DNA of 64,000 nt from Euglena gracilis (GCA_039621445.1 CP154954.1:22952954-23016953); one strand, 5' to 3'. Shown: positions 1,121 to 62,918, counted from the first letter of the stretch. Translations and numbers: made by a program. Notes: generated by a model not told the origin, from the sequence alone.

Positions 1121-1202
1121 GCAAGAAGATGCTGCGGCACAGCCATCTGTATGGGAGGGCCTATTTGTATGACTGCGCAGTGTTCGACTCTCGCATCCAG
1201 AG
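1121..1202 (+). CDS. Gene 1 exon (KKMLRHSHLYGRAYLYDCAVFDSRIQR)
   Basis: cttcag acceptor and GTGTGC donor; phase 2 joins the exon at 2467. Confidence 0.6.
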
Positions 1203-3935
1203 GTGTGCTTTGAGGGGAGGCGTTCAAAGCAGGGCGTCGCCTTGGATGGAGGGGGGCCCTTCGGGCAGCCAGCCAGCAACCTTTTTCCAGCTTTGAATCC
1301 CCCCCCATCAATGAGCTTTATTTATCTGCTTGCCCAAAAAGCGGCAGAACGGTGATCAGGGGTTTTCTTAAGCCGGAGGGGACCCAAACCTCCGGGGGGG
1401 GGGGGGGGGGTCCAGCCAGCCAGCCAGCCAGCATTTTTTTTTAGCCCACCTCCCAGTCAAGCGGACCCCTCCAAGGGCGGTCTGCTGAATTAAAGTTCGG
1501 GCCAGCCTGGCAAAGCCAGGCTGGCCCAAAAAAAAAGGCGCAAAACACCGGAAATTTTCGGAAAGGGGGTTCAAAAATGGCCCAAAGTGACATTTTTGGG
1601 TGGTATTTTATATTTCACCTCCAAATTTTGCAAAAGAAACCCGGCTGGATTTGGGGCTTTTTTGACTGCTTTTGGGGTTTTTGTCGGGTTGTTGGGTGGC
1701 GTCCAGCCAGTATCTTCTTTCCAGCCAGCACCCTTTTTCCAGCCGCCGCAGGACCCCTCCCCCCCAGGGGGTGCTTAAGAGAACCTCTGGTGGTAATGAA
1801 TTTTTTGCTGGCGAAAATCGGCTGAACAGCCCAAAGTTGGTGCTGAAGAATTTTCTGCATAATTGGCAGTTCTGGGCCTATTTTTTTTGTGGTGTTGTTG
1901 TTGTTGTTGATTTTTTTGGCGCCTGGTTTGACCTCCAGTCCAGCTGGGGGGCCGAGGGCGGGGGGTCAGCCAGCAGCTTTTTTCCGGCCAGCCCAAAGCT
2001 GGCCGGAAAACCCGCCTCTGAGCCCCAGAAGTCGTTAAGCGACGTCCTGATTCAGGGAAAAGCCACCCACTGACACCCATAAACCCCCCCCCCACCTATA
2101 AGAAACCCGTTTCTTATAGGTGGGTTTCCAAAAAAAATGGCCCAAGGGGTTTCTTGTAGGTGGGGGGGGGTTACGCCAGAGGCAGGCACGCCAGAGCGTG
2201 TGCTTGCCCGAGCCTTGCTAGATCTGGCTCACGTCCATTTTTTCACTTTGGCTTTGCGGGGTGGGGTGGCTCGCTCCAAAAGATTCTTTGGAAAAGAGAG
2301 AGGATGGGAATAAAACCCGAGCTGCCTTGCCTTGGCTCCCAATATGCAAATGGAACAGATGCTCAACTTGAGTTCCGTTCTTAATATCCAACCATGCTAA
2401 AGTCGTCGCCCTTTTCGGCCCTCAGGTGATCGCGCTTTTATATGTTCCGTCCCCGGCTCTCGGCAGGTTTGGCCAGCCCCCAGACGTGGTCAGCAATGCC
2501 GTCCACCTGGAAGTGTTCCCTGCCCCTGCCCCGGCAGGTGTGTGTTCATCAAATGAGAGGTGGGGGGAGGTTTGGTCCACTGTGCCCAAGGCTCATGAAG
2601 TGGTGAAGAAATGGGTTGAGGTTGTATTTTCATAGCAGTTTAGAAAGCAAAAGCCATTGGAATCAAATATTGAATACCAGTTTGGTTTGCGTTGTATTGT
2701 TTTTGAATTCAAATTCTGTGTTTCGGACCCATTTTGCTGACTGTCAAAAGTGTGTAAAGATAATCTTAACAACAAAATATCAGGCAGTCTAATATTATTG
2801 GTCACCCAGGGGTTCCAGTGGTCTGATGACAGAGGGTAATTAAAGGACCAGGGTTTGGATTCTGATTTGTCCCAATTTTGGTCTTAAACCGATTTTTTAT
2901 TTAGACAAATATATAATTTTGCATATATATTATATTATTGTATAATATGTATAATTTTATTTAATTGTATAATATATTTAAATTATTATATATTTTTATT
3001 ATTATTATTTATTATTATATATATTTATATATATTATATATTTTATATGATATATAGTTATATATAATTATATATGATTATGTATAATTATACATAATTA
3101 TATATGATTATATAAAACAACATAATGTATCATACATATTAATATCATATAATCTATTGTATAATATGTAATATATAATGTATAATCTTTAATGTAGATG
3201 CATAATGTATAATATATGATGGATAATAGAAAATTAATACATAATATATTTTGATATATAATATATAATGTATAATATAAATATAGTACGCATATAATGT
3301 GTAATGTATTATATATAATATACATATAATAAAAGATGGCATACGTTTATACGTGTATATATGGCATACGTTTAGATCAGCTATCCCCTCTTGGTCGGGG
3401 GGGGGGGGTAGCTGATCCAAACATGCAGCATAAAGGGTGATAATTTTCAGAAAGATGTTTTTCGGGTTATTGAAAGAACACGGAAGGCCAGGATTTAGGC
3501 GGTAATTTAAGCCTAATTTTGTGACCAAAGTCAGGCCAGAAGTTCGACTTAAATTTTAGTTTAAATCCCAACCCCTATTCTTTCAATAAACTAAAAATGC
3601 ATTTCCGAAAAGTGTCACCCTCTGTGCCAGATGTTTAGATGAGCTACCCCCCCCCCCCGACTGGGAGGGAGGGATCTGGCCTAAATACATGCCATATTGT
3701 ATATACATAATTATGTACACACACACCCACCTACATATATACGTATGTGTGTATGCATGTATGGATGGATGCACGCATGTATGTGTGTATGCAGGTATGT
3801 ATGTATGCATGTATGGATGTATGTATGTATGCATGTATGGATGTATGTATGTATGTATGTATGTATGTATGTATGTATGTATGTATGTATGTATGTATGT
3901 ATGTATGTATGTATGTATGTATGTATGTATGTATG

Positions 3936-42628: not shown

Positions 42629-45207
42629 TGACAACAGCCTTTGATGTGGTCAGGAACCTGTGCACGTCAACGTGAGGTTTTGCAAAAAAAAAAAACGTCC
42701 GAGGTGCCCTGACCGACCAATGAGGAAGTGGGGGGAAACATAAACACATTTTGCACCATTTTTATGCATTTTTAGGGGGGAATGGTTTTCTTGCGTTGTC
42801 ACCTGGACATTTTGTTGCTTTTTTGGGTGTTTTTTGAAGGAAAAAAAACTGTTTCGTCAAAAAAAAACCGATTTTTTTTGCAACGAAAGTCACGGGGACA
42901 GGGACAGGCGGGGAAAAAACACAAAGCACTCTGGAAGGCTGAAAAAAATAAATGTCCAAAAGCTATAAAAAAAAAGACACCAGGTGCCCCTCAAAGGATT
43001 AGCCTGGCGTTGCTTTTTTGAAATTTTCTTTCGTTCCAAAAAAATAATCCTCCCTGGCACCCGACCTCGTTCAGGAGGCCATTCGGCGCGCCGCGGAATT
43101 TTTGGCACAATTTTGAGGGGGGATTTTGCAACCATTTCTCAACCTTTCCCTTGCTGCGCCCCTTGAACACTTAAAGAAAGACAGCGGCCGTCACCTTCTT
43201 ACGCTGCAATCGCACCAAGGGTTTCAAATTAAGAACTCAAAAGTTTCAGCCACTTTGCATGGGTCGAAAATTGCTGCATCATATTCCCCCGCCCCCTAGT
43301 CCTTTTCGGGGGAGGGGCAAACCCCCTCCAGTCTAAGACAGGGGTGGGACACCCTACTGCAAAATTTCGTGGCCCGGCGCCTCCCCCCAAAAAATCGGCC
43401 ACTTTTTTTGGGGAAAACAACGTTTTTTTTCCCCAAAAATGCCGGGAGGGGGGCAGCCGGGCCTTTTTCAAGACGCCCCGTGCACCCTTTTGGTTGGTCA
43501 GGACCCCGCCTTGAGCCTTGGCGGTGGTGGGCCGAAACGCTCCGGCCCAGCCCAAGGACGGGGGGAGGACGACCAAACCATGGATTCAGTGACCCACTGG
43601 AGTTGGCTTGCCTCCTTGCTTCGGGGGGAACGACACAAACAATACCCTCAGCTCGCAACCAAAAATGCGGCCGACAGCGTCCCGGCCCAACCGTCCTCAA
43701 AACCCCCACGCACACACTAAGCGAGTCTAAGCACACCGGTTTTTTGTCGAAGTATGCGGCCGTTTTTTTTTGGGGCACCGCGGCTTTTAAAAAAAGTTCT
43801 GACCTCAAAAAACTGTGATCTTTTTCCCTGTTCTGAAACAATCGTTGGATGAGAGAGCCAGCGGACAACAGCCAGGTGGCGCACAGACTGAAGGCAAAGG
43901 CTCTTAAGTCTGTGAGCGGAACCTTTGCTAAATGAACTTCGGCACAAGACGACAAATGCGGCGATTTCTGCGCATATTACTTCCAGTCTCTAAAGAATGG
44001 TAAAAAAAAATGATCCCAAATGACAGAAAATGTGTGCCAAACCCCTCCCCTTTTCTGTTCCCCTTCACTTCACCCAGCAGCACTGGTGGAAACCTTTGTG
44101 ACCAAAGGGAGAAAATGGATTTTGTTTTGGGTTGGTTTTGTTGCTCTGGTTCCTGTAAAGCTCCAAACCAACGCCAAATGGATGTTTTCGAGGTGCAACT
44201 CTGTATTTTTGACGTTTCAGCAAACCTTTTCGGCCTGACCCAGTTGTTTAGGTCATGGTCGACGGGAAAAGTACCACAACCCCCTCATTTGACCCCTTAA
44301 GTGAGCAATTGGGTCTGGGTTTCGTCCTCTCTTAATTTCTGACTCCCCCCCAAACAGGGGGGGTAGGAGCCCCGAAAAATTGCCTGATTTGAGAAAAGAA
44401 TGAAAAAGCTGTGCACTGTCGTTGAACCGCGTTTTCAATAACATAATTTTCAATCCCCCAGATGAATCCCTTTTGAACGGAAACTTTGCCCAAATACTGA
44501 AAAGAGTGGAAACACCATCCTTGGTCCAGAGATGACAGGGAGGCCCCCCACATTTATCAGATTCTCCCAAATCATAAAAATGCACCTTCAAATTTGAGCA
44601 AAAACTTTTTTCTCACTGTTTCACATTCCAGGTTTTTTTTTAACTAGAGGTAATTGCTTGAAAGTGGTGTTCTGCAGTGTGTTAAGATGTTTTGCCCCTA
44701 CTTTAGCACCCTGTGGCCCATGAGTCTATGGTTTTTACCTTTTGTGCATTTTTTTTTGCTTTTGCAATGTTCACCTCGAAAAATGAACAGAAATGTATGG
44801 AAATTATTTCATTCCATTTTTTTTTCTAATTTCATCCCTTGAGTGAATTAATATCCTATTAAGGTGGGGTTCAGGAACATTGAAAAAAACCACCAGCAGT
44901 GTCACTTACCATCCCCCCCCCCTTTATGTACCTCCCCCCGGGAGGCCAAAACCGGGCAGGAGGTACATAATGGGGGGGAGGTACACAATGGGGGGGGGGG
45001 CAAGTTTTTCTTTGGCGGGACATGGGAGAAGGTGGTGCTACCCCCCCCCCATTATGTACCTCCCCCCCCAGGGGGTACACAATGGGGGGGGGGCATGGTA
45101 CAACAAATGTTGGTACAACAAATGTTCGAAACCCAGGAAATGCGGTTCACAAGGAGCAAAGAAATGGGGAATTGGAGGGAGAAGAAATGGCAAACGTTTT
45201 TGAAAGT

Positions 45208-45499
45208 CTATGCAAAGGAAGCAGTCCTCGCATTCTGAATGATTTGAAGGAGTGCTGAAGAAATACAAAGACAACATGATCACAGGACGGAATTGAACCT
45301 GAACCAAGTACAACAAAAAGGAGGACGCCAAGGACAACAGGACCAACAGCGACCTTATCAGCCTTTTTCTTATCCTCTGGGTGAACTTTCTTTCCGATTT
45401 GGCCGTTGTATTTATCAGACCTCTTGGAAATTGTCCTTGGTTTACCAGGCTGAAAGTCAAAATATTGGTTGGCGCATGGAAACAGGACGCCCACACCAT
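45208..45499 (-). CDS. SERP1: Stress-associated ER protein / ribosome-associated membrane protein 4 (RAMP4/SERP1), 66 aa
   Basis: Exons 45497-45499 (ATG), 45299-45449, 45208-45254 with 47- and 44-nt GT-AG introns give MPGKPRTISKRSDKYNGQIGKKVHPEDKKKADKVAVGPVVLGVLLFVVLGSALLQIIQNARTASFA*, carrying the VGP..L....FVV.GSA..QII tail-anchor signature. Confidence 0.92.
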
Positions 45500-45554
45500 T
45501 TCTGTTCAAATTGCGTCGATCCTAATTCATTACGCTAATTCATCACACCAGCCC

Positions 45555-45579
45555 CTTTCTGAGTGTCTATTTTTTTTCG
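45555..45579 (+). other. Genomic copy of the euglenid spliced-leader exon at the 5' end of a retrotransposon
   Basis: CTTTCTGAGTGTCTATTTTTTTTCG matches nt 2-26 of the Euglena gracilis SL as recalled; not followed by a GT SL-intron; 14 nt before the ORF1 ATG. Confidence 0.88.
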
Positions 45580-45593
45580 TCTGCATAACCACC

Positions 45594-46766
45594 ATGGCTG
45601 CAAAGGGGCCGGATGGCCCTCCAGAAGACCCCAAGACTCAAGACAATACACCCCTTGTCAATCAAGCTGCTACCACAACCAACCCTTCAAGTACACCTAC
45701 TGCTGCAGTGGACACTGGACAGTTGGAGCTGCTGGCCAAGATGTTGTTGCCGCTGTTGGTGCCGGTGCTAACCACTGCTGTGGCACAACGACTCACTGCT
45801 GACCGCCCTGTACATAGTGACAGAGAAAGTCAAGACAGCAGCTCACAGAGAAGGAAGAGGACTTGGCAAGAGAGGGAAGAGCATGAAGAGTACCTACAGA
45901 GAAGGTTTGGAAGAGATTACAAGCCCCCATGGCAGAGAGGTCGACCCAGTTATCATATATCTCAACAGAGTTCTCCTCAGCCCCAGCTCCACCAGCAAGT
46001 GAGTCTGGGGCCCCCCTGTACAGCAAGCCCAGCAGTGGGCATTCCACAGTCAGGCCCATCAGTGGGCATTCCAATGAACAGCCCATTCCAATGCCCACCA
46101 GTGGGTAGAAGTCAAGTATGTCCATCTGTCACATCAATCATACAAATGTACATTCCATCACAGACCAACCTTTGGGGTGAACCCCAGCAATCTCAGCAAC
46201 CACTGCAATCAAACTGGAGCAGAGAAGATGACCAGAGGAAGAATTGGACCAGAGAAGAAGAGCAGAGAAGGAGAGAGGCTGAACTCTTCAGAAGCCTCAG
46301 AGCCTTTCTCAGCACAGGCCAGAGTACTCAAGTCCCCCCCCTCCCAACACCATTACACAACCCTGGCCTGCCAGCACCCTTAATCCCAGATGTGGTACTG
46401 GCATCACCATCAGCCTTCCAATGTGCTTTTCTGCCTGCAGCTTTCCCTTTTGTCTCACAAAGTCCCCCCCAAAGAGGGGACAACTCAACACAATACTTTC
46501 ACCCAGTAAAACAAATGGATCAAGAATTTCATCCCAAGGCAACTCCAAATCAAAATGAGTTGGCAAAACAACCCCCCCCCCCAACCCAAAAGAGGAGGAT
46601 CATCAACCCCAGCCAAATGCAACTCCAAAAAATCTCAGCACCAGCCCCCCAATATCAGCCCCCCCTGCAAGAGGGGGGGGGCCAGGCACACCCTTTCGCA
46701 TTTTTAAAATTCCAACAAAACCCACCATGTTTGATGGCACACAGTGGGCCAAACTGGGCACAGTGA
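45594..46766 (+). CDS. Retrotransposon ORF1 (Pro/Gln/Ser-rich, function unknown)
   Basis: First ATG after the SL copy (accaccATGg), 390 codons, overlaps ORF2 in the -1 frame. Confidence 0.7.
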   Translation: MAAKGPDGPPEDPKTQDNTPLVNQAATTTNPSSTPTAAVDTGQLELLAKMLLPLLVPVLTTAVAQRLTADRPVHSDRESQDSSSQRRKRTWQEREEHEEYLQRRFGRDYKPPWQRGRPSYHISQQSSPQPQLHQQVSLGPPCTASPAVGIPQSGPSVGIPMNSPFQCPPVGRSQVCPSVTSIIQMYIPSQTNLWGEPQQSQQPLQSNWSREDDQRKNWTREEEQRRREAELFRSLRAFLSTGQSTQVPPLPTPLHNPGLPAPLIPDVVLASPSAFQCAFLPAAFPFVSQSPPQRGDNSTQYFHPVKQMDQEFHPKATPNQNELAKQPPPPTQKRRIINPSQMQLQKISAPAPQYQPPLQEGGGQAHPFAFLKFQQNPPCLMAHSGPNWAQ

Positions 46767-49700
46767 TCCTGCAGGAGGAACCCAGCCCCTTTCAATGGCA
46801 AGACCCCCCCCAGGCAACAGATTTACCAGCTTCCCCACCCAACACCCCCCTGGAAGGGGTCCCAGTTTGGGAAAAACCAGAGTTTCGGTCCCTCAGGGAA
46901 GAATTTTTTTGGAGAAGGCGCATGAGACAGCAAGCAGGAGGCATTTTATTTCACGAGATGGTCGCCAGAAAACTGGCCAACATTCAGGAAAAGTGGGTCG
47001 ACATTGGCAGAACAGTGGACATTCGGGAGTCACAAAAAATGGTGCACACAGACATGAAACTCACGTTGCCATTGGCAGCGCCAAACGTTGTGCAACCGCC
47101 CCCCCCACCAAAAAAGAACCTCATCCTGGAACGGATCAGAATCGCCCAGATTCTTCATCAATACCGACCAGAGGAACAACGTGAGGAAGGAGTGGACATG
47201 TCGCACATAGAAAAAGTACGCCGAGCTATCGCACAAAAAATCAAACAAAAAGTGCCTGCAGCTGAAGCAGTCTGCCGCCCGAGGACAAAGAAGAGGCTGA
47301 CACCCTCCCGAGAACCAACCCTGCCCATTGCCTGGCGATACTGCCCAAGAATTTGGCAGATGGATGACATGCCCAGACCGTTACAGTTTGCGTGTGAGGT
47401 TGGATTGGCTGATCGTCTTTCCCCGTCTGTATGGACTGCCACCGATCTTGATGACTCAAATGACTCCCTGTCGGACTATTACTCTTGTGCTGGCACAAAA
47501 AAATTCCGCATGGCAGAAACAGCCGGCAACATACACCCCTGCTCTGCAAGCCCACACGGGGGGAAGAAGCCGGAAGATGCATATCTGAAGACGGGGCGAG
47601 GTGATTCTCTGACAACAATGGGTGATGTGGAAACCAATCCAGGCCCGCTGACGGTATTTAATGGACCCTGTGGTGAAGTCATGGATTTATTGGACCAACT
47701 TGTTGCCATGAACATGACTGATTTCTTTCGGATCAAGGCCGAACTACCGTTGCGGCAAGGCCCCGATGGCTCCTCCCAATCACTTCTTCCCAAAGCTACA
47801 TACTGGCTGAAATGCACTTTGTGTGACATTGAAACCATCACTGCCTCGGCAGGTTGGTGCTTGCACCACAGGGAAACCTGCCCTGTTTTTTCAGCCACAG
47901 TATATCCATCTACTGAGACAGCCAAAGTACACTCCATAACAAGCCGAGGATACACGGCAGAACAAACCCGGGAAAAGTTTTCAGAAGGACACCAGCCGAC
48001 TGGAAGGGGGGAACGAATCACCACCCATGGTGACGTCCAAACACAACCAGGACCCATCTACTTCCGTCTGGCTACCATGGAAAGACCAACAATCCCTGTC
48101 TCCAGGGGACTTCAAGAAAACTTCATCCGGCACAGATTGCTGGCGAGCCTTCAAGAGGTGGATGCAGAACTTCAAAGTTTCCGAGACGCCTTCCTTTCCG
48201 ATGTCCTGGTTGAGGACACTACCGTCTATGAGCTCACCGAATGTTGGGAAGTTTTGAGAGGAGTTCTGTTTGTGCTCATAGGGCTATGGCCACATCGACC
48301 ACCACGTCACGACTCCCCATCGAGTGTACATGCCATTATGTGGTTGCTAACTTGTTTATGGTCCGAAGTATGCAACATCGGCGAGGCCTTTCACCTCTAC
48401 CTGCCCCCTATTCGCCTAATGACACTACCCAACGTTCTCCGGCCGAGAGGCACTTTCCCCAGAGTACCTCCAACGGAGCCCTCCTCGTCCGACCTCTCCC
48501 CATTGAATGCACACACCGTTGATATCCTGGACATCATGGCCTTCTTACGTCCGACAAGATCAGTAGTTTCAGTTGACCGTCATGTCCGGAGGGCACGACG
48601 GACAGCACAAAGACAACCAAACTACCAACGAGGTGACCAACACGGTGATATAAGCCCTAACGACGCTGTCATAGCCGAGAGGCCCAGACACCAAGATGTC
48701 ACACTTTGTGGTGACGTTCAGCTCGAGCCGGGACCTATTCACCGCACACCCCCACGTGAAGGACCCCTATCCCTGCGACCTAGCACCCAGCCCCATTGCC
48801 GACGACCAACTTGCACTCTGGCCCCAGGGCCTTTTAAGTTGTCCAATGTGGCCCCAGGGCACGCCAACCATGTACGGCAACTGATTGACCAGGAAAAAAC
48901 GCGGTATGGGTACAGTCCCCCCAGCTGTGGCAGGGGTAAAAGCCTTGCCAGTTGTGGCGACATTGAAAGCAACCCAGGTCCCACAGAAACCCGCCCTCCA
49001 CAGCAGGAAGACGTTGAAATGGCCTCAGCCGCACAAACCTCTGCTGTGCCGCCGACGGAGCGACCTCTCCTTGGATCTTGGTTTCCAATGCACTCGACGC
49101 CGCTGTTCTCGCCTACTTTGTCCCAGGCTGTAATGCCGTTTCCCAGTTTGAACGGGGGCCCCGGGGCACCCGCAGCTGAGCAAATCATGGTCATTGACGA
49201 ACTAGAGTCCCGGGTGCGCTCAGTGATTTCCGAAATTCACGGGCATGCGCCGCAGGGCCAGGGCTTGACTGAGAATTTTGTGCCGTCCTTACCACAAGGG
49301 CAAGAGCAAGAGTGCCAAAATGGTCGAAGGCCGCAGCCCCCCGTGGCCCCAGCACCAGCGCAATCCTCGACGAACAATGATACGGTGCAAGTCACTCCCA
49401 CTCCCTTCTCGCAACCTTGCCCACCACTGCAGCCATCTTGGGAAGAAATTTCCCAAGACAGTCGAGGCACGTTGGTCCATATCCCACGGGGAGCGTTGCG
49501 AAACGTAGGGCTCGCCTTTTGCAGCACCCTCAGTCGCTTTGTGTCCAAGCCAGGATGGGAGACCCTACACGCACTTTGGTGCTTCCCAAAAGCTGTGCTT
49601 GCTCCATTGAAGCGCAGCGGGAAAAGCCATTGGGCTGCAGTTGGACGGAAAATTACTGAGAGAGCCAATGCCTACCTCAACCGGTCCACAGAAGATTCGT

Positions 49701-52090
49701 GGGATGAGACTCGCCAAATTCGCGATGCACAAAACCCAAAGAAGAGAACACGAAGTCAGACAAAAAATTTCGAGGCAGAAAGCCAAGAAAGATTGTGCAA
49801 CCGTGTTCAAAGCCTTGTCAATCATGGGGCGGTCAGTAAAGCCTGCCGCATGCTGACTTCTGATGGAATCCAAGATGCAGATGACCCGCTAATCTTGGAA
49901 CGGTTGGCTGCCTTGCACCCTCCTGAACCCCAACCTGGAAGGCAAAATCTGCCTCCGGACTTCCCTCGCCTCGAATTCGATCTCAGTGAAGAAGCAACCA
50001 GGGAGCGCCTAATTGAAATACGGAAAGCAGTCATGTCTTTCCCGAAGGAATCCTCACCGGGACCGTCTGGACTTCGTCCAGATCATCTCAAAGACATGCT
50101 CTCTGATCCCCTGGGGACACAATCTGAACAACTCCTCACAATTTTGGACCAATTCATCCGAACATGTTTGACAAACGGAATTCACAACTCAGTGGCATGG
50201 ATTTTCGCTGGTGCCCGTTTGACTCCTCTTCGAAAACCCTGCAATCCAAGCGAAAACTTTGATGAGCTTGGCAATGCCAACCCCATTCCTGACCCAAAGA
50301 AGGATGGCACGCGACCAATTGCAGCTGGGGAATGCCTGCGTCGATTGGTGGGCAAATATTTGATGAGGCACCCCAAAATCAGGGACCGCCTTAAAGAACT
50401 GCAGCCACTACAATGTGGTGTAGGGGTCCAGGGGGCATGTGAACTCATTGCTATGGGACTGCAGCAAGAAGTAAATCACCTGCACATGCAACAGGACAGC
50501 ACCTGGGCTTTGTTACAGGTAGATTTCAGCAATGCTTTTAATTGCGTAAAAAGAAAGACAGTCCTTGCTGAAGTGGCTAAACGCTGCCCGGAGGCGTACG
50601 TTTGGTTCGAGAGTTGCTACGCCGAACACAGCCCGCTCTTTTGTGGGTCATCACACCTTCGGAGTGCCTCTGGTGTACAACAAGGGGACCCTTGTGGCCC
50701 AGCCGGATTCGCCTTGGCGTTGCAATCCCTCGTTGAGTCCTTGCAAGACGTTGTGCCACTCCAATTGTGGTATTTGGATGATGGACACATCCTGGGAACC
50801 CTCCCACAATTACATGCAGCAATTACAGAAATTCAACGACAGGGGACGCTACTAGGCATACACCTCAACACAAAAAAATGCCGCCTGTGGGGCCCTGCAG
50901 CAACAGAAGCCAATCGTGCTGAAATGCCGCAAAACAGCCCACTTCGTGCAGTCCCAATCGTGAACTACTCCCCCGATTCTGGTATACGGGCCCTGGGAAT
51001 CCCGGTATGCTGTCCACAAAGCGGAGGCTTTGCGGGGGAAGTGTGGGCTGAACGTGCAACAAGTGTGCAGAAAGCTTGCCGGGCCCTTTTGAACCTGCCG
51101 CAGGCCCATATTCAGTTCTGCCTCTTACGAACCTGCCTAGATGCATGCAAAGTTAATGACCTCATGCGTGCAACAGAACTGGGGCAGGCAAATGACGCAT
51201 GTGCTTTGTTGACCAAAGAAATCAGGAACACAATGAGCAACATTGTTGGATCCCCCATCGATGACAACCAATGGGCTCAGGCCACCCTACCTGTGCGTCA
51301 TGGCGGACTCGGACTTCGGGACCCATCACGGGAACGTCTCCCAGCACGGATATCCGGCATTGTGACGTTTGTCAGCAATGGCAGACGCACCCTGGGTCTG
51401 GCAGACCGAGGAGTACCGAAAGACACTGTTGAGTGCCTGTCCTCTGCCAACTCCATCCTCGAAGGAACTCCCCCAACGCAAGCATGGGCCGCGGATGTAT
51501 CCCTCTTGAACGAAGCCCAAAGCCCTCACATTCAACAGAAGTGGTGGGGTGAATGCTTTGCGAAACAACGACAAAAGGTATTATCCTCCAACCTTCACGG
51601 TCAAGACGCCGTCCGGTTCGCAAGCCAACAGCGGCCCCACGCAATGGCCTGGGCTTCTGTCACACCATCCTCTGGACTGAAAACATTGGTTGCTTCTGCC
51701 GAATTCAAAGGATTTCTAAAGTGGGCACTGGGAGCACCAGTTTGCCCTCCAACGGGATTAACGTGCCCACGCTGCACCAAGCCAATGGACAACCTGGGTA
51801 ATCACCTTGTCCTCTCTCCGTTGACCGGAGGAGGTGCACCACCCGGCATCCGTCAAGACAATACCGCAAGAGTGCGTGCCGCACTTGCCCCTCTGGGCCA
51901 TCCGATCCGTGGGCTGGACTGGAAACACTTGGGGCCCTTGTGGCCCAGTATAGGGAGGGGGGTCGGCACGCCGTGGCGAGGTTTCCGGCTAGGGGGGGGG
52001 GGAGGGGGGGTTTTGGCGTGGCGAGGGGGTCCCGGATGGGGGGGGGGAGGGGTGCGCGGGGGCCAAGAAAATTTTCTTTGGCGGGCCTGA
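46727..52090 (+). CDS. Retrotransposon ORF2 polyprotein: four 2A-like peptides plus reverse transcriptase; last ~90 codons are read-through into foreign DNA
   Basis: 1787-aa ORF; RT motifs at ~50300-50900; homology stops at NHLV (~51810). Confidence 0.9.
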   Translation: MFDGTQWAKLGTVILQEEPSPFQWQDPPQATDLPASPPNTPLEGVPVWEKPEFRSLREEFFWRRRMRQQAGGILFHEMVARKLANIQEKWVDIGRTVDIRESQKMVHTDMKLTLPLAAPNVVQPPPPPKKNLILERIRIAQILHQYRPEEQREEGVDMSHIEKVRRAIAQKIKQKVPAAEAVCRPRTKKRLTPSREPTLPIAWRYCPRIWQMDDMPRPLQFACEVGLADRLSPSVWTATDLDDSNDSLSDYYSCAGTKKFRMAETAGNIHPCSASPHGGKKPEDAYLKTGRGDSLTTMGDVETNPGPLTVFNGPCGEVMDLLDQLVAMNMTDFFRIKAELPLRQGPDGSSQSLLPKATYWLKCTLCDIETITASAGWCLHHRETCPVFSATVYPSTETAKVHSITSRGYTAEQTREKFSEGHQPTGRGERITTHGDVQTQPGPIYFRLATMERPTIPVSRGLQENFIRHRLLASLQEVDAELQSFRDAFLSDVLVEDTTVYELTECWEVLRGVLFVLIGLWPHRPPRHDSPSSVHAIMWLLTCLWSEVCNIGEAFHLYLPPIRLMTLPNVLRPRGTFPRVPPTEPSSSDLSPLNAHTVDILDIMAFLRPTRSVVSVDRHVRRARRTAQRQPNYQRGDQHGDISPNDAVIAERPRHQDVTLCGDVQLEPGPIHRTPPREGPLSLRPSTQPHCRRPTCTLAPGPFKLSNVAPGHANHVRQLIDQEKTRYGYSPPSCGRGKSLASCGDIESNPGPTETRPPQQEDVEMASAAQTSAVPPTERPLLGSWFPMHSTPLFSPTLSQAVMPFPSLNGGPGAPAAEQIMVIDELESRVRSVISEIHGHAPQGQGLTENFVPSLPQGQEQECQNGRRPQPPVAPAPAQSSTNNDTVQVTPTPFSQPCPPLQPSWEEISQDSRGTLVHIPRGALRNVGLAFCSTLSRFVSKPGWETLHALWCFPKAVLAPLKRSGKSHWAAVGRKITERANAYLNRSTEDSWDETRQIRDAQNPKKRTRSQTKNFEAESQERLCNRVQSLVNHGAVSKACRMLTSDGIQDADDPLILERLAALHPPEPQPGRQNLPPDFPRLEFDLSEEATRERLIEIRKAVMSFPKESSPGPSGLRPDHLKDMLSDPLGTQSEQLLTILDQFIRTCLTNGIHNSVAWIFAGARLTPLRKPCNPSENFDELGNANPIPDPKKDGTRPIAAGECLRRLVGKYLMRHPKIRDRLKELQPLQCGVGVQGACELIAMGLQQEVNHLHMQQDSTWALLQVDFSNAFNCVKRKTVLAEVAKRCPEAYVWFESCYAEHSPLFCGSSHLRSASGVQQGDPCGPAGFALALQSLVESLQDVVPLQLWYLDDGHILGTLPQLHAAITEIQRQGTLLGIHLNTKKCRLWGPAATEANRAEMPQNSPLRAVPIVNYSPDSGIRALGIPVCCPQSGGFAGEVWAERATSVQKACRALLNLPQAHIQFCLLRTCLDACKVNDLMRATELGQANDACALLTKEIRNTMSNIVGSPIDDNQWAQATLPVRHGGLGLRDPSRERLPARISGIVTFVSNGRRTLGLADRGVPKDTVECLSSANSILEGTPPTQAWAADVSLLNEAQSPHIQQKWWGECFAKQRQKVLSSNLHGQDAVRFASQQRPHAMAWASVTPSSGLKTLVASAEFKGFLKWALGAPVCPPTGLTCPRCTKPMDNLGNHLVLSPLTGGGAPPGIRQDNTARVRAALAPLGHPIRGLDWKHLGPLWPSIGRGVGTPWRGFRLGGGGGGVLAWRGGPGWGGGGVRGGQENFLWRA

Positions 52091-54010
52091 TATGGCGTGG
52101 TGAGGGGGTCTGAAAAGGGGGGGGAGGGGGGTAAAATGGCGTGGCGATGGGGGTCGGTGAGGGGGGGGGAGGGGTGTGCCGATCCCCCGTAGTTAGCCGC
52201 AGTTGCGAGGCTACTGTGCGCATGATGCAGACAGACATGGATTGCCAAAAATGCTCCACTCTCTCGGCTTTGCTTTCCCTGATTGTGGTATTTTCGGCAT
52301 AAAGTCGACAGATGTGATGGAGCAACAGGTTGCCTTCACTGGTCATGCCTCCCCACGGGTGAAGGACCAATGCTTTGAAGTCCCATCGGACTTTCTCACA
52401 TGCCACTGCATATTTATTGAGTTTGGCTTGTTCTTCACGTAGCAACATTTTCTTGGCAGAGTCTGGTGAGGGGCGGGGTTCAGAAGGTCGCAATGGCCAA
52501 TGGGTGCACAATAATGAGATCAATAGCCAAGGGTGGTCCACCCCGCCAGGTGGCCAGGTGTAAAAGAGCATGTCACCAGGTCAGGAGCCATCCGGCAGTT
52601 GGGCTTCTTTAGAGGAGGTAATACCTGCCTCTCGTGCTGTGGCAAGTAACCAGTCTTGGAGTATGGTGTGGCGTTGAGTTGGCGTTGAGTGGCCTTGCAG
52701 GTAACTGCATGGTCTCCCCATGCATCCAAGCATGCTGTACATTGGGCACAAGTACTCCCCACCTCATTGGGGTTGAGCAGTGTCCAAGCCACCACTGGAG
52801 TGCCAGGCGATGATCAACATGTTCCATCTGGGTTCCAAGAGCTTGAAAAGGGCGGCAATTCAGCCAAGCCCCTGAGTTGGCAGTCTGTAAGCTTTTGCGA
52901 CACAGGTCTCGGTGGCTGCCAGTTTGCTTCCATTCCTTGTATCTCTGGGCATTCATGCAATCTTGCCAAAATTGTTGTCGAGTTTCTTGCAGGCTCGCTC
53001 TCTGGATGGAGGAGGGCGTCTCAAACCAGCCCTTCAGTGGCTGGACCTCTTGCCCAAGTCGGTGTCGAAGACTTGCAAGGCGAACGTTGAAGTCAGGCGG
53101 CAGAATTCTCATATTGTCACAAGGAATGGCGCACAGGTAAGTGGTTTCATGGCGCACATAACTCGCCATACAGGAAACCCTGGCTACCTCTTGGTAATCC
53201 AATGGAGATTTGATTCCAAGTCCAGCCAATTTGGTTGGGAGAAAGGTCTGGCGTGCTTGGTCTTCCGGTAGGGAGCGTCCAATAATGTTTTCCACCGCCT
53301 CCAGAAGATCTTGATGGATGTGTCTCAAGGTGTCTTGAACATGTGTAGTGTCAGTGGTTCTTAGGAGGCTAGGCGCCGCTCGGGGGGGGGGGGTCCGGGA
53401 CCCCCCCCCCCTCCCCCATCAGGACAATGTTTTCAACGTCTGGGACCTAGATGAGGAACATGCCGAAGAGTGTGCAGTGAGACCAATTGCTGCAGGAGAG
53501 ACCCTCATACGCCTCATTGGAAAGTGTGCAATGTCCCTTTCTGAAACCAAACTGGCGTCCCAAAAACTGCGGCCGTTCCAACTGGGGGTTCATCTTCCTC
53601 CATGGCTTTATCCGATGTTGTTGTTTTCTTCGTTGGAATCAAATTTGCTGCTCCAAGGAGTTGTACAACAGTTTGTGGTAGTTTTCCTTCCAAGGCCTGC
53701 TGTACAAAGATGTCTAGCTGATGGAGGAGCTCCGTGGCATTCGGGTTACCTGGCAGGATCATTTGTTGAAGGTGACTGGGTCGGAGGCCAGAAGGCCGCA
53801 ACTGTTAGTGCTCCGTCTTCAATGGCCCGAAACACCGACTGCCTCGTTTGGTCAGTGAGGCGGTTTGTTTTGTTTTGCAGACGTTGTGATTTTCTGTCCA
53901 TTCTAGTGTCGTCCTCACAAAGTTTGAACTGGTCAGGTGGGATCTCCAGAAATGAAATTGAAGCGGAAATGATTGCTTTGGTGTTACGTACTTCATGCAT
54001 TTTCCCTCCC
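51812..54010 (-). mobile_element. Degenerate CRE-like non-LTR retrotransposon (opposite strand), deleted and rearranged
   Basis: Minus-strand LPTKLAGLG, CAQC...HAVTC, the RLE region (PGDM, EQAKLNKY, LHPWGG) and PSGLRPSHL; RPIAAGE segment inverted at ~53420-53590; MITE at ~51945-52190. Confidence 0.8.
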
Positions 54011-55124: not shown

Positions 55125-55195
55125 GGGGGCGAACCGGAACCGAACCCGGGACCATACGGTTATTAGCCCTATGCTCTACCACTGAGCTATTCGCC
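55125..55195 (-). pseudogene. tRNA-like unit (anticodon AAT, Ile-like), degenerate
   Basis: GGCGAAT/GTTCGCC acceptor stem, TAGCTCAGTGGTAGAGC D-arm, CTAATAA loop, damaged T-arm, downstream T4. Confidence 0.6.
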
Positions 55196-55244
55196 TTCTG
55201 GGTGGCTACAAACTCTGGTGGAAAAAAGGGAAAATGTCCAAAAA

Positions 55245-55316
55245 GGGGGACAACCGGGGATTGAACCCGGGACTGTAGGGTTGTAGGCCATATGCTCTAC
55301 CACTGAGCTATTCGCC
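55245..55316 (-). pseudogene. tRNA-like unit (anticodon position TAC, Val-like), degenerate
   Basis: Intact A and B boxes, downstream T5, poor acceptor and anticodon stems. Confidence 0.55.
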
Positions 55317-55519
55317 ATTTTAAGTAAAGTAAAAATTTTAGTTGACGAGGGCTCTCACCCTTACGATTTTTTGTTGTTTTTTTTGTGGATTTTGATTTTT
55401 TTTGGGTTGGTTTGCGAAAGTATCACACATGGACCAATTAATCGTTAATCGTCTGGGACCCCCCGATTAATCGCAATTAATCGTTCGACTTCCCAAAACG
55501 ATTAATTGGCACAACCCTA

Positions 55520-57105
55520 CTTCTACCTACCACCTATTCACCTAATGACACTGCCAAACATTTTCCGGCCAAGAGGCACTTTCCCCAGAGCACCTCCAAT
55601 GGATCCCCCCTCTTCCTACCCCTCCCCAATGAACGTACATAGCGTTGATATCATGGAGATCATGGCCTAGTTACGTCCCACAAGACCAGTTACCAAGGCT
55701 GGATTGAGGTATTGAGGTTGAGGTCGAGGTTGAGGTTGAGGTTGAGGTTGAGGTTGAGGTTGAGGTTTTCCAACCTCCATCTTTCCTCAATGTCACCTCA
55801 AAGCCAAAATCCAAAGGAAAATGATTCAACAACAAAAAGCTTTGAACAAAGTGTTTCAAAGAGAGGCAAATTACATGGATTTTTTCAAAAATTGGATAGT
55901 TGGTCACTTATCTCAAGTTTTAAATCACCAACCCACAATAACTGGGCCAATTGACCGCCACATCCGGAGGGCACGACGGACAGCGCAAAGACGTCTAAAC
56001 TATCAACGAGATGGCATACGCCCCGACAACCCAGCGATAGCCATGCGGCCCACACATCAAGATGTCACACTTTGTGGCGACGTTAAACTCAAGCCAGGGC
56101 CTGTTCCTCGGATGACCATGCTTGAAGGACCCCTATCCCCACGGTCCACCATCCTGCCTAGTTGCCAACGTCCAAAACACCCACCTCTTTGCCTCAGTGG
56201 TGACATTGAAGAAAACCCAGGGCCAGACGATGATTCAATGGGGGTGTATCCCCCGCGACCCCCCCCCCCGCGACCCCCCCGCGACCCACACATGGAGGGT
56301 TTCCGCATCCCAGTAGGAGCCAAAAAAGGGCACCTAATTAGGAATTTGCACCCAAATTAGGAATCAAAATTTCCTAAAAATGTGTGACAAATTCCTAATT
56401 GGAGCTATTTTTGGACCCAAAAGTTCTAAAAATAGGTCCCATGTGACGTACGTGTGACCCGTCAAAACTTCCACGTTCCCCCCGCGACCCCCCCCGCGAC
56501 CCCCCCGCGACCCCCCCCCCCGCGACTCATACACCCCCAATGCTTCTAGAAGGCGGACAACAAGTGCAATTACATATGGATTTTCCAAGTAGCAGTGCAC
56601 CTACCGATCTGATGCCGGATACATACCGTTGCTTGAATGCCTGCCCGTTCTTTCCCGCCTGCCCGTTTCAGACCGCGGAAGAAGCGACTGAAACATCATG
56701 TGGACCGCATCCACGTGTCTAGAGGACAAGTCCCTGACAGATTGTGGATGATGTCCCTGGGTGTCCGGGTACGTGTCACCTGCCTGCGACTTGTTCCCAC
56801 AGGATCAGCCTGCAAAGCCTCCACTTGTCAGTCAGCTCCCCCTTTAGATAATCCCTATCAATGGACGCCACCAACAATTTGTCAGGTCCCGCCGTCGTTG
56901 ATCCCGTTCAGCCCCAGGCAGCCCCGTTGCATGAGCCATCTCTCTCTGACCAGCGTTGCACCCACCAGATTTTGCAATTATTCATGACAAAACACAGCAA
57001 CCTCCGTTTCATTCCGCACCAAGCCCTGCCAGCTGTAACGGCTTCCTTCGCAAATTTGTTGAAGCAGTTCAATGGCTTACCAAACACTTACAACCTTTTG
57101 AAACA
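55520..57105 (+). mobile_element. Degenerate fragments of CRE-like ORF2 N-terminal region, with two 2A-like motifs and Zn-finger-like remnants
   Basis: 55520-55685 and 55950-56160 align by eye to 48398-48800; GDVKLKPGP, GDIEENPGP; IPHQAL..V.ASF is homologous to IPRGAL..V.LAF. Confidence 0.75.
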
Positions 57106-57602
57106 GTGTATTGGGGCTCTGGCTTCATCTGGACGCCGGTTCGGCGCAGAAATTTCTGCGCCGAACCGGTGTCCAGAACGCCGGTTCGGGCGGGAAAACG
57201 GCGTCCTGGGGACCGAAAATGAAAGTGCCAAAAAGTGTCCAAAATGGTTTGTAGACATGAGGCAATCATATCTGAGCACTTTTTGGGGGGTATTTGGCTA
57301 GAAATTGGGGTATTTTGTGCAACAATTTCCATTTGGCCAAATCTGGGGTTTTTCTGAAATAGAATACCATGCAGCAGGGCTGAAATCTAAGGCCATCTAA
57401 AACCCTTGAGAAGGGTTATTCATCAAGGGGCAACATGGCAGGTGAACAGTGGATTTTGGAATTTGCGAAAAGGGTCCAAAAATCGTAATTCTGAAAAAAC
57501 CCAAGAGGTCCAGCTAAAATTTCCTAACCATAATTCTGAAAAACCCAGGGTATGAACGCCAAGAGAAGGAAAAACATTCAAAATATGACGCCACCTGTGG
57601 GA

Positions 57603-57868
57603 GGATGGGATGGACCTGCATTCCATTTGTTGTTGACTGCTATGGCGGCTTAGGCCAAGAAGCGCTAACCTTAATGTCAACACTGATGAAGCTTCTCCTC
57701 GGTCAACAAGATGCATGGTCAAAACGCAAAACTGAAGCCGACACATGGCAACTTCTATCAATCACTGTTGCGCGAGAGATCGCGCGACAAGTAATCTGGG
57801 GACGGTATGCAGGCAACGACACAGATCCAGACGTAACCTACACCATACACCAACCGTATTGTCTGTAA
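57603..57868 (+). mobile_element. RLE C-terminal fragment of a CRE-like element
   Basis: GWTCIPFVVDCYGGLGQEA...WQLLSITVAREIARQV, paralogous to 60045-60290. Confidence 0.75.
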
Positions 57869-58759
57869 AGAAGACCATTACGACCCCTAGACCCAGAACA
57901 AACAATTGTCCTTAAACCATTCACAACTTGTCAAAAAAGTAAACAACGGTACCCAACCATCAGCAACCTGTGTCCCACATTGACAAGAGAAGTGGCCGTC
58001 AATTGGCTTGTGGAACAGCGGTGGAGCCATCTGGAACGGTGGATCCCACCACCCATTGCCCATTTGAGACGGAGTAAGCAATTTGACCACAGGGTCGAAG
58101 ACTCCATGACACACCAACCGTACGCATAACCAACCACAAGACTAAAAAGACGTCCAAACCCTTACCACACTGAAAACAGAGCCTTCCCTGCGCCAACTCC
58201 CCTAAACCCAAACCTAAACTTGTCGCTGCCACAGCCTCAACACACAACAGTCCCCATGGCCATTCTATTGAACCTTCCCTGCCGCTGTACACTTTCCTCT
58301 CACACTCGCTATCTCCCCTCCGTACTGTGCCCCTCACCGCCCTTCTTCTACTTCACCTTCGACTCTCGCCCCTCCCACAGTCCCCATTGCATCTGCGGAC
58401 AATTTGATGTAAATATCTCACCCGCCATGAACTTCGGCTCGGACTGTCCCTCCTAGGCCGCTGGTTCAAATTCCACCAGCCCCTTGCCCCTCCGTTTTCC
58501 CTGCTACCAAGACTGCTCGACTTTACACGCCCTCACCTGTACCTCACCTGTTCCCTATGCGCCACTGCCTGTACCAAGCCTCTCCAAAGTCCCCACTGCA
58601 TCTGCGGACAATTTGATGTAAATATCTCACCTGCCATGAACTTCGGCTCGGAGTGTCCCTCCTAGGCCGCGTTTCCAAAAAAGATCACCGCCAAAAAAAA
58701 AACCTCGTGTCAAACTCACACCAGCACACGGAAAAGAACAAGCGAGGCTGCCACGCTTG

Positions 58760-60290
58760 GGTTGGCCGTGAACCCCGCAAAATGTCGATTGTGGGGACCA
58801 GCGTTCACATCAACAGAAGGTGTCCCTTGCATTCTCCCTGGCACGCCACACGACAGCCCCTTACATCAAATACCACTGACTGCCTTTGTTGCTGGTTCTG
58901 GTCTGAAAGTTCTGGGGGTCCCTGTTCACCACCCCCAAGATGACCGCTTCTGTGAAGAAGTTTGGAGTAAGCGCATTGAAGACATCCGACGTTCTTGCAC
59001 AGTACTTCAGCACTTACCTCAATCGCATGTGCAATTCACCTTGCTTCGTTTTTGTTTATCCGCTTGCAAAGTGAATGACCTCTTGCGCGCCTGCAAAATC
59101 TCTTCTGCAACAGCGACATGCAAGACATTGTCGGGAATTCTTCAGGAAACATTCAGTGGCATGGTCGGCTCCCCTTGCACCCCAGAAGAATGGTTGCAAG
59201 TTTCCCTGGCCATCACATGTGGAGGACGGGGAATCTCCGAACCACTATTTCAACGTGTGCCTGCCAAATTGTCTCAAGTGGTGGTCTCTTGACGAAGAGC
59301 TCTGTCTTGGGCTTGCCCGCTGCCATGGACATCCTTCCCAAGGACGCCGACGATTGTTTAGGGACAGCCCTCAACGAACTTGGTCAAATGGCCTTACTGC
59401 CATAATGGGCCAGTGACAAAAACTTGATCCCTCAGGCACAGTCTCCACACAATTCACAACGTTGGTGGAATCAGCAGAGCATGCTTGCCCGCAGGAAAAC
59501 ACTTCGGGACACATTGAATGGACCTGCTGCTGTACGCTTTGCAAGCCAATGCCAACCACATGCTATGGCGTGGGCCGCTTTGACCCCATCTCAAGGACTC
59601 CACACCCTGTTACCCACGGCTGAATTCCGCTGCACACTTCGTTGGTCCCTCGGAATGACTCTCACACCAATGGAATCCGATCCCAACCTCTGTCCCAAAT
59701 GCTTTGGGCCATCAGATTTTCTCGGACACCACCTCGTTTGCTACAAATCAAACTTCATTACCCGGCGGCACGGGGTTGTCCAAGATTTTCTGACAACCAC
59801 AACATAGAAGGCAGGATTTACAGCCCGTAAGGAACAACGAGCTGATGGCCGTTCCCGGCCTGGAGACATCTTCATTCCTCGCTTGGACACTGATGGACCA
59901 GTTGCAGTGGATGTGACAATCCGCCACACCCTTGTGCAAAGTCATCCACTGCGGAGTGCAGAGAACCTTTCACAATGGTAAACACATTAGGAGGCTGAAA
60001 AGCATGCCAAATATGATGCAACATGCCAACGACTGGGCTGGCGGTTGATGCCATTTGTCATGGATTGCTACGGGGGCATGGGACAAGAAGCGCGCTCCTT
60101 GATGGCCACCCTCCTTAAGGCCCTTCTGGGGCAGTGGGAAGGGTGGCAACGGCGGGCCGCAGAAGCAGACATTTGGCAAGGCCTGTCCTTCACACTAATC
60201 AGAGAAATCAGTAGGCAGCTCGTTTGGAGCTTGTATTCTTCCAAAGATGAGATCACCCTGTCTTCCGCCCACTCACCATATTCTATCTGA
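58760..60290 (+). mobile_element. 5'-truncated CRE-like non-LTR copy (RT thumb, CCHC knuckle, RLE) with frameshifts and stops
   Basis: KCRLWGP, CKVNDLLRA, CPKC...HHLVC...RH, RPGDI, VDVT, EKHAKY, DCYGG. Confidence 0.85.
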
Positions 60291-62327: not shown

Positions 62328-62897
62328 TCATTCCCACTTCTCCGTGAACCACTGGTACCGCTGTCGACGATACCTCCTCTTGCACGCCTCGGAGAGTCCA
62401 CGTTCATCTCCACTTCTCCTGCGGGCTCGGGACGATGCTCCTTCATCTCCTGGGGGCATGTCCTTCAGGGTCTCTTCCTGGAATCTTCGGTACTGGAGCA
62501 AGCACGCCCGGACTGGCCAACGCAATGGCCCAGTCGGCTGCATATGGCCCGCCTGCTGGTCCCAGATCTCGAAGAACCGGGTTCCTTCCTCGAAGATGAT
62601 GAACTTCACTGTCATCTTCTGCAGCATTGGCCACCATGTTGTTGTACGCCACTCTGGTGCAATCAGCACCATCTCCTGCACCTGGTCCGCGATGATCTTG
62701 AGGATAACTTGATTCATCAACGTCCACGGTGGGTTGGCCCATATCCTTTCTCTTGACCATGTCTTCGCAAATGCATTGTCTTCCTTCGTCCAGAACTTGG
62801 GGAATCTTGCATTTTCCCATGATGCAAATGCTTCTTGCACACTTCCTTGCTGAATGTTGAACTTGTCCAGGATCAGGTCGATGAATTCCCAGCGCAC
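62328..62897 (-). CDS. Retroelement-type (DIRS-like) DNA N6-adenine methyltransferase domain
   Basis: EAFAS..N, NAF...W, WANPPW (motif IV NPPW), VLIAPEW....WWP.L. Confidence 0.8.
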   Translation of the reverse strand: MRWEFIDLILDKFNIQQGSVQEAFASWENARFPKFWTKEDNAFAKTWSRERIWANPPWTLMNQVILKIIADQVQEMVLIAPEWRTTTWWPMLQKMTVKFIIFEEGTRFFEIWDQQAGHMQPTGPLRWPVRACLLQYRRFQEETLKDMPPGDEGASSRARRRSGDERGLSEACKRRYRRQRYQWFTEKWE

Positions 62898-62918
62898 GGC
62901 GTACTCCTCGGAGATGTA

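Follow-up and report, generated by a model that had tools for sequence, protein, structure and literature searches.

The 64,000-nucleotide (nt) stretch of Euglena gracilis DNA analysed here (GCA_039621445.1, CP154954.1:22952954-23016953; hereafter the window, with positions counted from its first letter) contains a copy of a retrotransposon without long terminal repeats (non-LTR) at whose 5' end stands the spliced leader (SL) exon of the host, from its second to its last nucleotide, joined to a short untranslated region (UTR) and to the first open reading frame (ORF1) of the element. We consider it rather probable that the template of this copy was a mature, SL trans-spliced mRNA of the element, which was reverse-transcribed to SL nucleotide 2 and then integrated.

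45555-45579, plus strand: DNA-encoded SL exon, nucleotides 2-26 of 26 (exact and unique match, 25/25 against five of five SL-RNA gene copies)
45580-45593, plus strand: 5' UTR of 14 nt (direct reading; alignment with SL genes)
45594-46766, plus strand: ORF1, 390 amino acids (aa), no Pfam family

The 25-mer CTTTCTGAGTGTCTATTTTTTTTCG occurs at 45555-45579 on the plus strand with no mismatch and is the sole match in the 64 kb when up to 3 mismatches are allowed; none of 100 dinucleotide-preserving shuffles gave a match to it. It equals nucleotides 2-26 of the published 26-nt E. gracilis SL (PMC6242988), and a primer in PMC5654406 carries the same SL core. The window base preceding the 25-mer is C, where SL nucleotide 1 is A, and the first base past it is T, not the G of a GT donor. 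Fourteen nucleotides, unlike the SL-RNA intron when aligned with the SL genes, separate the leader from the ORF1 ATG, and leader and ORF1 share the same orientation; a sequence-only reading of this DNA had placed a Euglena SL exon at just this distance from the start codon, and the exact 25-mer bears it out. Within the window the 16-nt 3' part of the leader occurred once at up to 2 mismatches, with no other SL relics, and scans for a T-run followed by CG and for UTR motifs returned unrelated sites only, with no stacked or truncated relict leaders.

Scanning metagenome contigs for the exact pattern gave 4 loci, from which 5 SL-RNA gene copies were fetched for comparison. All five read ...ACACTTTCTGAG...TTTTCG followed by the intron start GTATA(T/C)A, whereas the window reads ...CCC, then CTTTCTGAG...TTTTCG, then TCTGC; GGTTTGRCTTACA is the sequence upstream of the SL in the SL-RNA genes of two of the loci, and GTATATACTCG is the start of the SL intron. 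BLAST of the SL loci against the window resulted in one match each, 45555-45579 at 25/25, with no extension on either side. The upstream sequence of the SL genes was not found ahead of the window leader, and no SL intron or 5S similarity was found by BLAST in the 64 kb, where the other matches were 13-26 nt long and attributable to chance or telomere-like sequence. A 5S rRNA gene adjoins the SL in 3 of the 4 reference loci, one of which (L004) holds a tandem SL/5S unit with a period of 782 bp; at Rfam gathering level the window contains no SL, 5S or ribozyme family, the only matches being two tRNAs at 55126-55312. In the SL/5S units, TTAGGG-type repeats were also seen just 3' of the SL-RNA gene (L001 300-330; L004 60-100 and 860-880).

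The window leader begins one base past SL nucleotide 1 and ends exactly at the SL splice-donor site, as trans-splicing predicts, its limits equalling those of the processed exon without the SL intron in five of five gene comparisons. Judged by these alignments, the window has the SL exon alone, which is the pattern of a trans-spliced RNA and not of a gene fragment. Two further claims of the sequence-only reading agree with this: that no SL-RNA intron follows the leader (T follows, where five of five SL genes continue with GTATA), and that the RNA used as template bore the SL and was copied by reverse transcription almost to its 5' end, for which the exon-only identity, a RAMP4 flank described below and the lack of any SL/5S repeat in the window all speak.

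The position of the boundary also bears on two other origins of the leader. The reverse transcriptase (RT), on reaching the 5' end of an unspliced element RNA, might have jumped to SL RNA or to another mRNA; template jumping is general among the reverse transcriptases of long interspersed nuclear elements (LINEs), and U6/L1 chimeras are a precedent. A jump to SL RNA, however, would copy part of the intron too, and the window SL stops at the donor, in register with the short UTR, while a jump to another mRNA must land exactly on the last base of the leader, so that we regard a template switch as extremely improbable.

In what is the strongest alternative, master copies may reside in SL-RNA genes exactly at the exon-intron boundary and be transcribed from SL +1, with the window copy as an off-target insertion. 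Such an origin would suit an element whose endonuclease type is usually site-specific, whose family profile matches best with R2 proteins and whose named relatives at 28-29% identity bear automatic 'SLACS' names, and the window SL does start within one base of SL nucleotide 1. SLACS occurs only in SL-RNA genes, and its RNA starts with leader bases, transcription presumably beginning at +1 of the gene that it interrupts (PMC3447711). Insertion would, however, have to fall at exactly the last exon base, whereas SLACS and CZAR sit inside SL genes between leader nucleotides 11 and 12 (PMC5814959); the window copy, one of a high-copy, dispersed family, is not located in an SL gene and has the entire exon as far as the donor. 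SL/5S sequence surrounds none of the 4 copies or fragments of elements that the window contains, and all 5 fetched SL genes are uninterrupted, in what is a small sample from other sources. In read contigs (DNA runs X1, X4 and X12 and RNA run X15; contig ends and pieces here and below are those among the ones listed), 50 different left flanks in X1, with an agreement of 0.36, adjoin the 3' end of a related family at 51957, which argues for dispersed and not site-specific integration. The coincidence of the leader with the exon boundary favours trans-splicing over a master copy in an SL gene, two sources between which the sequence-only reading had not chosen, and we hold the latter to be rather unlikely. 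NeSL-1 is likewise grouped with the SL-gene-specific retrotransposons; the fixed insertion site inside the SL-RNA gene that marks CRE, SLACS, CZAR and NeSL is absent from the copy studied here.

What lies upstream of the leader is instead an ordinary host gene.

45114-45551, minus strand: 5' part of a RAMP4 gene (PF06624; introns 45450-45496 and 45255-45298; single-copy depth)

RAMP4 (PF06624, E 5.3e-9) is encoded at 45300-45437 on the minus strand; the gene diverges from the element, and its start codon lies 55 bp from the SL. Its ATG (45499-45497) is followed by a 47-nt GT..AG intron (45496-45450, by direct reading) and then by an exon beginning PGKPRTISKR, and a second intron (45298-45255) is spliced out in an X15 RNA contig (joint 45254>45299), from which we conclude that X15, labelled 'RNA?', holds spliced RNA; X4 in turn is a DNA run, since its RAMP4 contig retains both introns. 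That the flank is RAMP4 and not an SL/5S repeat had already been proposed, and this holds (no 5S or other Rfam family lies there), the minus-strand orientation of the gene having gone unnoticed. The same flank, with its introns and its single-copy depth, is further evidence that this is not an ordinary site-specific insertion into an SL gene. The bin 45151-45401 had a depth of 206.6 in X1, 6.34 in X4 and 9.13 in X12, compared with 47,505-181,322, 288-3,291 and 509-3,331, respectively, in the bins of the element, or 45 to ~880 times the flank, where all depths are summed contig depths, a rough guide only and not copy numbers. A single-copy flank adjoins a high-copy family.

Flank contigs fit the window over 45114-45474 in X1, 45114-45544 in X4, where the contig ends, and 45114-45551 in X12, and in all three runs they continue left of 45114 without fitting it. 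They all carry G at 45173 and G at 45267, the window bases at these positions being in none of the DNA runs, and an extra AAC behind 45481, which the window does not have, is present in X4 and X12 and in about half of X1, which holds both forms. These three differences reflect either strain or haplotype differences or assembly error, and the runs probably come from a haplotype or strain slightly different from that of the window. G/C-rich repeats at 44900-45113 and 51957-52180 reached summed depths of 362,599 and 421,681 in X1, compared with 206.6 for the single-copy bin, and as the flank contigs of all three DNA runs misfit left of 45114, the left repeat may have been inserted only in the strain that was assembled.

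These disagreements could also be taken as signs that, in so repetitive a region, the junction between SL and element, or between flank and SL, is a chimera that arose in assembly or from cDNA. The element is high-copy, the window departs from the flank contigs of three DNA runs left of 45114 and from the X12 contig right of 45551, two of its flank bases recur in no DNA run, and its 3' side is a patchwork of short fragments. Against a chimera, flank and element both retain introns and are hence not cDNA, the depth of the 5'-most bin of the element is comparable to that of the next bins, and the SL with the same first UTR bases recurs in at least 8 contigs of the independent DNA run X4, which fit the window up to 45587 (the SL and ~8 bases) and then share a different continuation with an agreement of 0.88. 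An artefact is in our view highly improbable.

The element itself comprises two overlapping reading frames, of which the first is interrupted by an intron.

46116-46163, plus strand: 48-nt GT..AG intron, in frame in ORF1 and retained here (joint 46115>46164 in contigs)
46727-51811, plus strand: ORF2, the element's own part (ORF call; 50-51% identity to full-length relatives)
47624-47647, 48032-48055, 48713-48736 and 48959-48982, plus strand: 2A-like motifs (motif reading)
47813-47881, plus strand: zinc-finger-like motif (motif reading in ORF2)
51764-51811, plus strand: start of a CCHC motif, C-P-R-C-x9-H only, before the break at 51811

The ORF1 intron (GTATGT...CACAG) is skipped in a near-identical X15 RNA contig, in which the shorter side of the joint spans 140 letters and the two sides have 0 and 2 differing letters; element RNA is cis-spliced at least sometimes, and its removal in an RNA contig indicates that element RNA is handled by the spliceosome. 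One X1 DNA contig also skips this intron, with only 29 letters on the shorter side, and DNA copies that were spliced and then integrated may exist; the window copy derives from an RNA that retained the intron. In X15, 9 of the 30 bins of the stretch are without RNA cover. A search for ORF1 relatives in metagenome contigs gave 45 pattern matches, none of which was confirmed.

ORF2 has its first ATG at 46727 and is open from 46559, overlapping the end of ORF1 in another frame. It contains an RVT_1 domain (E 1.1e-12; aa 1190-1388, 50294-50890) with YLDD at aa 1349 (50771); at E <=0.01 Pfam gave only RVT_1 in the 1787-aa ORF2, and no apurinic/apyrimidinic (AP) endonuclease of the Exo_endo_phos type was found. 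Four in-frame 2A-like motifs (DVETNPGP, DVQTQPGP, DVQLEPGP and DIESNPGP) stand in the N-terminal half, which they split into modules; such motifs are also present in a related copy in the window (56040-56250) and in the relatives P0002, P0003 and P0007. Database relatives reach 50-51% identity over ORF2 aa 1050-1700, and the three full-length ones just named carry 2A motifs, RT, a complete CCHC and, downstream of it, RPGD...D(I/V)T...K..(K/R)Y, which we interpret as a restriction-like endonuclease of the R2 type. Built from 17 relatives, a profile matched R2 proteins of solved structure best, in 2 stretches (9dou 7.1e-27, 9nl3 9.3e-27, 9nl2 1.7e-20, 8gh6 7.2e-14), compared with ~1e-8 for L1 ORF2, whereas a single-sequence PDB search with the RT part gave 0 matches; two relatives at 28-29% identity carry the automatic 'SLACS' names mentioned above. 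Placed by profile match and automatic names, the element would belong to the R2-type non-LTR retrotransposons with a restriction-like endonuclease, in keeping with the R2/CRE/NeSL type originally suggested for it. Of the aligned X1 contigs, 4,489 of 14,759 are at least 99% alike, and the family is accordingly young.

The copy stops short of its own 3' end, a truncation that the sequence-only reading had not noticed.

51811/51812, no strand: breakpoint inside the CCHC motif (contig ends; homology stop; full-length relatives)

Homology to the related copy ends at ORF2 aa 1695. Contigs that fit up to 51810 (3 in X1 and 1 in X12) go on with sequence that completes the CCHC, and those that fit from 51812 on are preceded by other sequence (in the four runs, 5, 5, 3 and 3 contigs). 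The window copy is without the endonuclease and the 3' end; being cut at 51811, it cannot be autonomous. A later rearrangement, an endonuclease-independent capture of cDNA or a mis-assembly could each account for the loss.

Under trans-splicing, the element pre-mRNA would be joined to the 26-nt SL through an acceptor directly ahead of TCTGCATAACCACC-ATG, and the element's reverse transcriptase would copy the RNA to SL nucleotide 2, consistent with the boundaries read in the DNA. The cDNA would then be joined, by a presumed integration route, to DNA ~55 bp upstream of the opposite-pointing RAMP4 start codon, at the junction present in the assembly. The resulting copy would have the SL exon but neither SL intron nor outron, its 3' end being lost or never integrated, and daughter copies could presumably be expressed only by read-through transcription and new trans-splicing. 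A candidate acceptor for the latter is the pyrimidine-rich CCCCTTTCTGAG, which by direct reading ends at an AG within the genomic SL (45562-45563) and is followed by TG; re-splicing at this AG of the leader itself would give an RNA with SL, a relict TGTCTATTTTTTTTCG and the UTR.

Several observations weigh against a trans-spliced template. Only one copy with an intact 5' end was examined, and the contig rows listed include no master copy in which an acceptor stands where the SL would be. The flank/SL junction is without independent confirmation, the X4 flank contig ending at 45544; none of the listed contig rows bridges it, which neither confirms nor contradicts it. The X12 flank contig runs on for 34 letters past 45551 that fall outside the window alignment, and it could stem from an empty site or from a strain in which the region is arranged differently. 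Furthermore, the cis-intron is kept although the template is supposed to have been a processed mRNA, the copy is 3'-truncated, unlike products of simple target-primed reverse transcription, and relatives bear the name of SLACS, a type of element that takes its 5' end from the SL gene.

Leaders without an intron were also encountered elsewhere. In addition to the X4 contigs described above, one X1 contig has a 7-T version of the SL, 9 further bases and then the C-rich repeat that is also present at 44915. Contig L005, 988 nt long and assigned to a bacterial metagenome-assembled genome, starts with 790 nt of unrelated sequence, including G-rich repeats, and then carries the full 26-nt SL at 791-816, preceded by G and followed by a different UTR and an open frame with no intron; no Rfam family was found in it at E <=0.1. 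The contig probably represents misbinned euglenid DNA, with a second DNA-encoded processed leader. These cases point to further loci with an intron-less leader in DNA besides that of the window, and say nothing on other copies of the family studied. An 18-nt motif of the second SL-headed family, taken from the reads, was absent from the window even with 3 mismatches allowed, the SL 25-mer had 0 matches in viral contigs, and a protein search with the flank, the SL and the ORF1 N-terminus (129 aa) gave 11 candidates and 0 matches in a collection that seems to be without the short contigs of the family.

The second X4 family, sharing the SL and ~8 bases before diverging, would also fit a conserved 5' module, in which case, however the leader was first acquired, each copy may be transcribed from its own SL nucleotide 1, used as an initiator or internal promoter as with Pr77 in L1Tc, and the leader would be recopied in each cycle with no new trans-splicing. 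The summed depth, a rough guide, is similar from 5' to 3' bins, as though many copies were full length, and the LINEs of trypanosomatids have an internal RNA polymerase II promoter in their first 77 nt (PMC1874656, PMC8190864, PMC5814959). On the other side, promoter activity finds no support in the present data, the upstream sequence of the SL genes is absent, and RNA contigs cannot reveal transcript starts; we consider transcription from a heritable leader quite improbable.

A wider proposal, which we hold only tentatively, is that Euglena has active, high-copy R2-type LINE families with the host SL as a regular, heritable 5' head, whose mRNAs are trans-spliced and copied to the cap-proximal base, whose daughters are re-expressed via CCCCTTTCTGAG or by initiation at the SL, and whose machinery scatters SL-tagged copies of other RNAs. 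If this were the case, DNA-encoded SLs would be a genome-wide marker of retroposition in euglenids, as they are in dinoflagellates, and any new retrocopy would start out with a leader and an acceptor already in place.

The kind of event described here is already known from dinoflagellates and has been proposed for flatworm LINEs. In dinoflagellates, DNA-encoded leader remnants mark retrogenes and are regarded as proof of a trans-spliced template (PMC12014239, PMC3942190), and as in the window copy a DNA-encoded SL heads a retroposed sequence; there, however, host genes are tagged and the relict leaders are often truncated or stacked behind a new SL, whereas the window shows a tagged retrotransposon with one nearly complete SL in a euglenid. 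A 2025 study of parasitic flatworms notes that the 597 loci with partial leaders which it discarded, mostly LINE or LTR sequences, might be integrated retrotransposons with trans-spliced transcripts (PMC12582326). The idea is the same and was a side remark in that study; the window leader, from another phylum, spans nucleotides 2-26 and had its boundaries tested against SL genes.

Among the retrotransposons themselves, SLACS, CZAR and CRE resemble the window element in being non-LTR elements without an AP endonuclease, and relatives of the element are named after the first of them. R2 shares with the window family a C-terminal CCHC followed by a restriction-like endonuclease, as read in the relatives, and is the best profile match. 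R2 targets 28S rDNA and has one ORF; the window element differs in having two ORFs, four 2A-like motifs and an SL head, with no ribozyme family at Rfam gathering level. L1Tc and ingi are, like the window element, euglenozoan LINEs with an in-frame 2A (DxExNPGP) and a 5' module that solves the expression of daughters (PMC5814959, where 2A is described for L1Tc as an AP-endonuclease LINE). L1Tc, however, has an AP endonuclease, the Pr77 promoter and unspliced transcripts (PMC1874656), whereas the window element showed no AP endonuclease and has the SL itself as its 5' module. The literature searched listed, by titles and abstracts, no report of SL-headed retrotransposons in Euglena, and passages of PMC10161547 and of a 2026 preprint (10.64898/2026.05.21.726589) do not mention them. 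Of further note, the tagged RNA is that of an autonomous R2-type LINE, the leader is complete to nucleotide 2 and the family is high-copy and young.

If a trans-spliced template is correct, the RNAs of Euglena retrotransposons pass through the host trans-splicing pathway, the reverse transcriptase of the element reads to within one base of the capped end, and processed leaders return to the genome as DNA. As a simple sequence tag, the leader would then serve to find retroposed genes and full-length element copies in a repeat-rich, poorly described genome, and it would link the SL-gene-specific elements of trypanosomes with dispersed relatives that gain their leader in another way. The expression of daughters with neither promoter nor outron would become a testable matter of re-splicing at the AG of the leader versus initiation at the leader.

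Downstream of the breakpoint, the window continues with fragments of related elements and a further copy.

51812-53795, minus strand: patchwork of inverted related elements (tblastn, ORF translations, contig ends at 51897 and 51957, depth)
51812-51897, minus strand: inverted RT-like piece of 86 nt (neighbours differ on both sides in other copies)
~51957-52180, minus strand: G-rich repeat of very high copy (bin 51928-52178, depth 421,681 in X1)
52190-53795, minus strand: endonuclease and RT remains of an inverted relative (tblastn, ORF translations)
55518-60290, plus strand: related copy, 5'-truncated (39-69% aa identity; complete CCHC and endonuclease motifs at 59700-60290)

Nested or inverted R2-type fragments were also seen at 57518-57868, and together with those at 51812-53795 they may result from template switching, nested insertion or mis-assembly. 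The related copy at 55518-60290 shows the parts lost from the one studied here. Comparison of the 3' regions of the three related copies in the window revealed neither a common target nor a common tail, the only matches being a 46-nt stretch at 78% and one 14-nt stretch. The sequence CTGCATA in the joint 52399>45042, considered as a second UTR, proved instead to be the antisense of endonuclease codons that extend beyond the aligned stretch.

Two tRNA genes lie on the minus strand at 55126-55196 and 55252-55312 (Rfam, 44.6 and 41.1 bits), ~200 bp upstream of the truncated end of the related copy. Additionally, an ORF at 62328-62918 on the minus strand carries a Dam-type N6-adenine methyltransferase domain (PF05869, E 6.6e-11). 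The relatives P0002 and P0003 also carry a Dam-like stretch, and Dam-bearing retrotransposons have been described in E. gracilis (10.64898/2026.05.21.726589).

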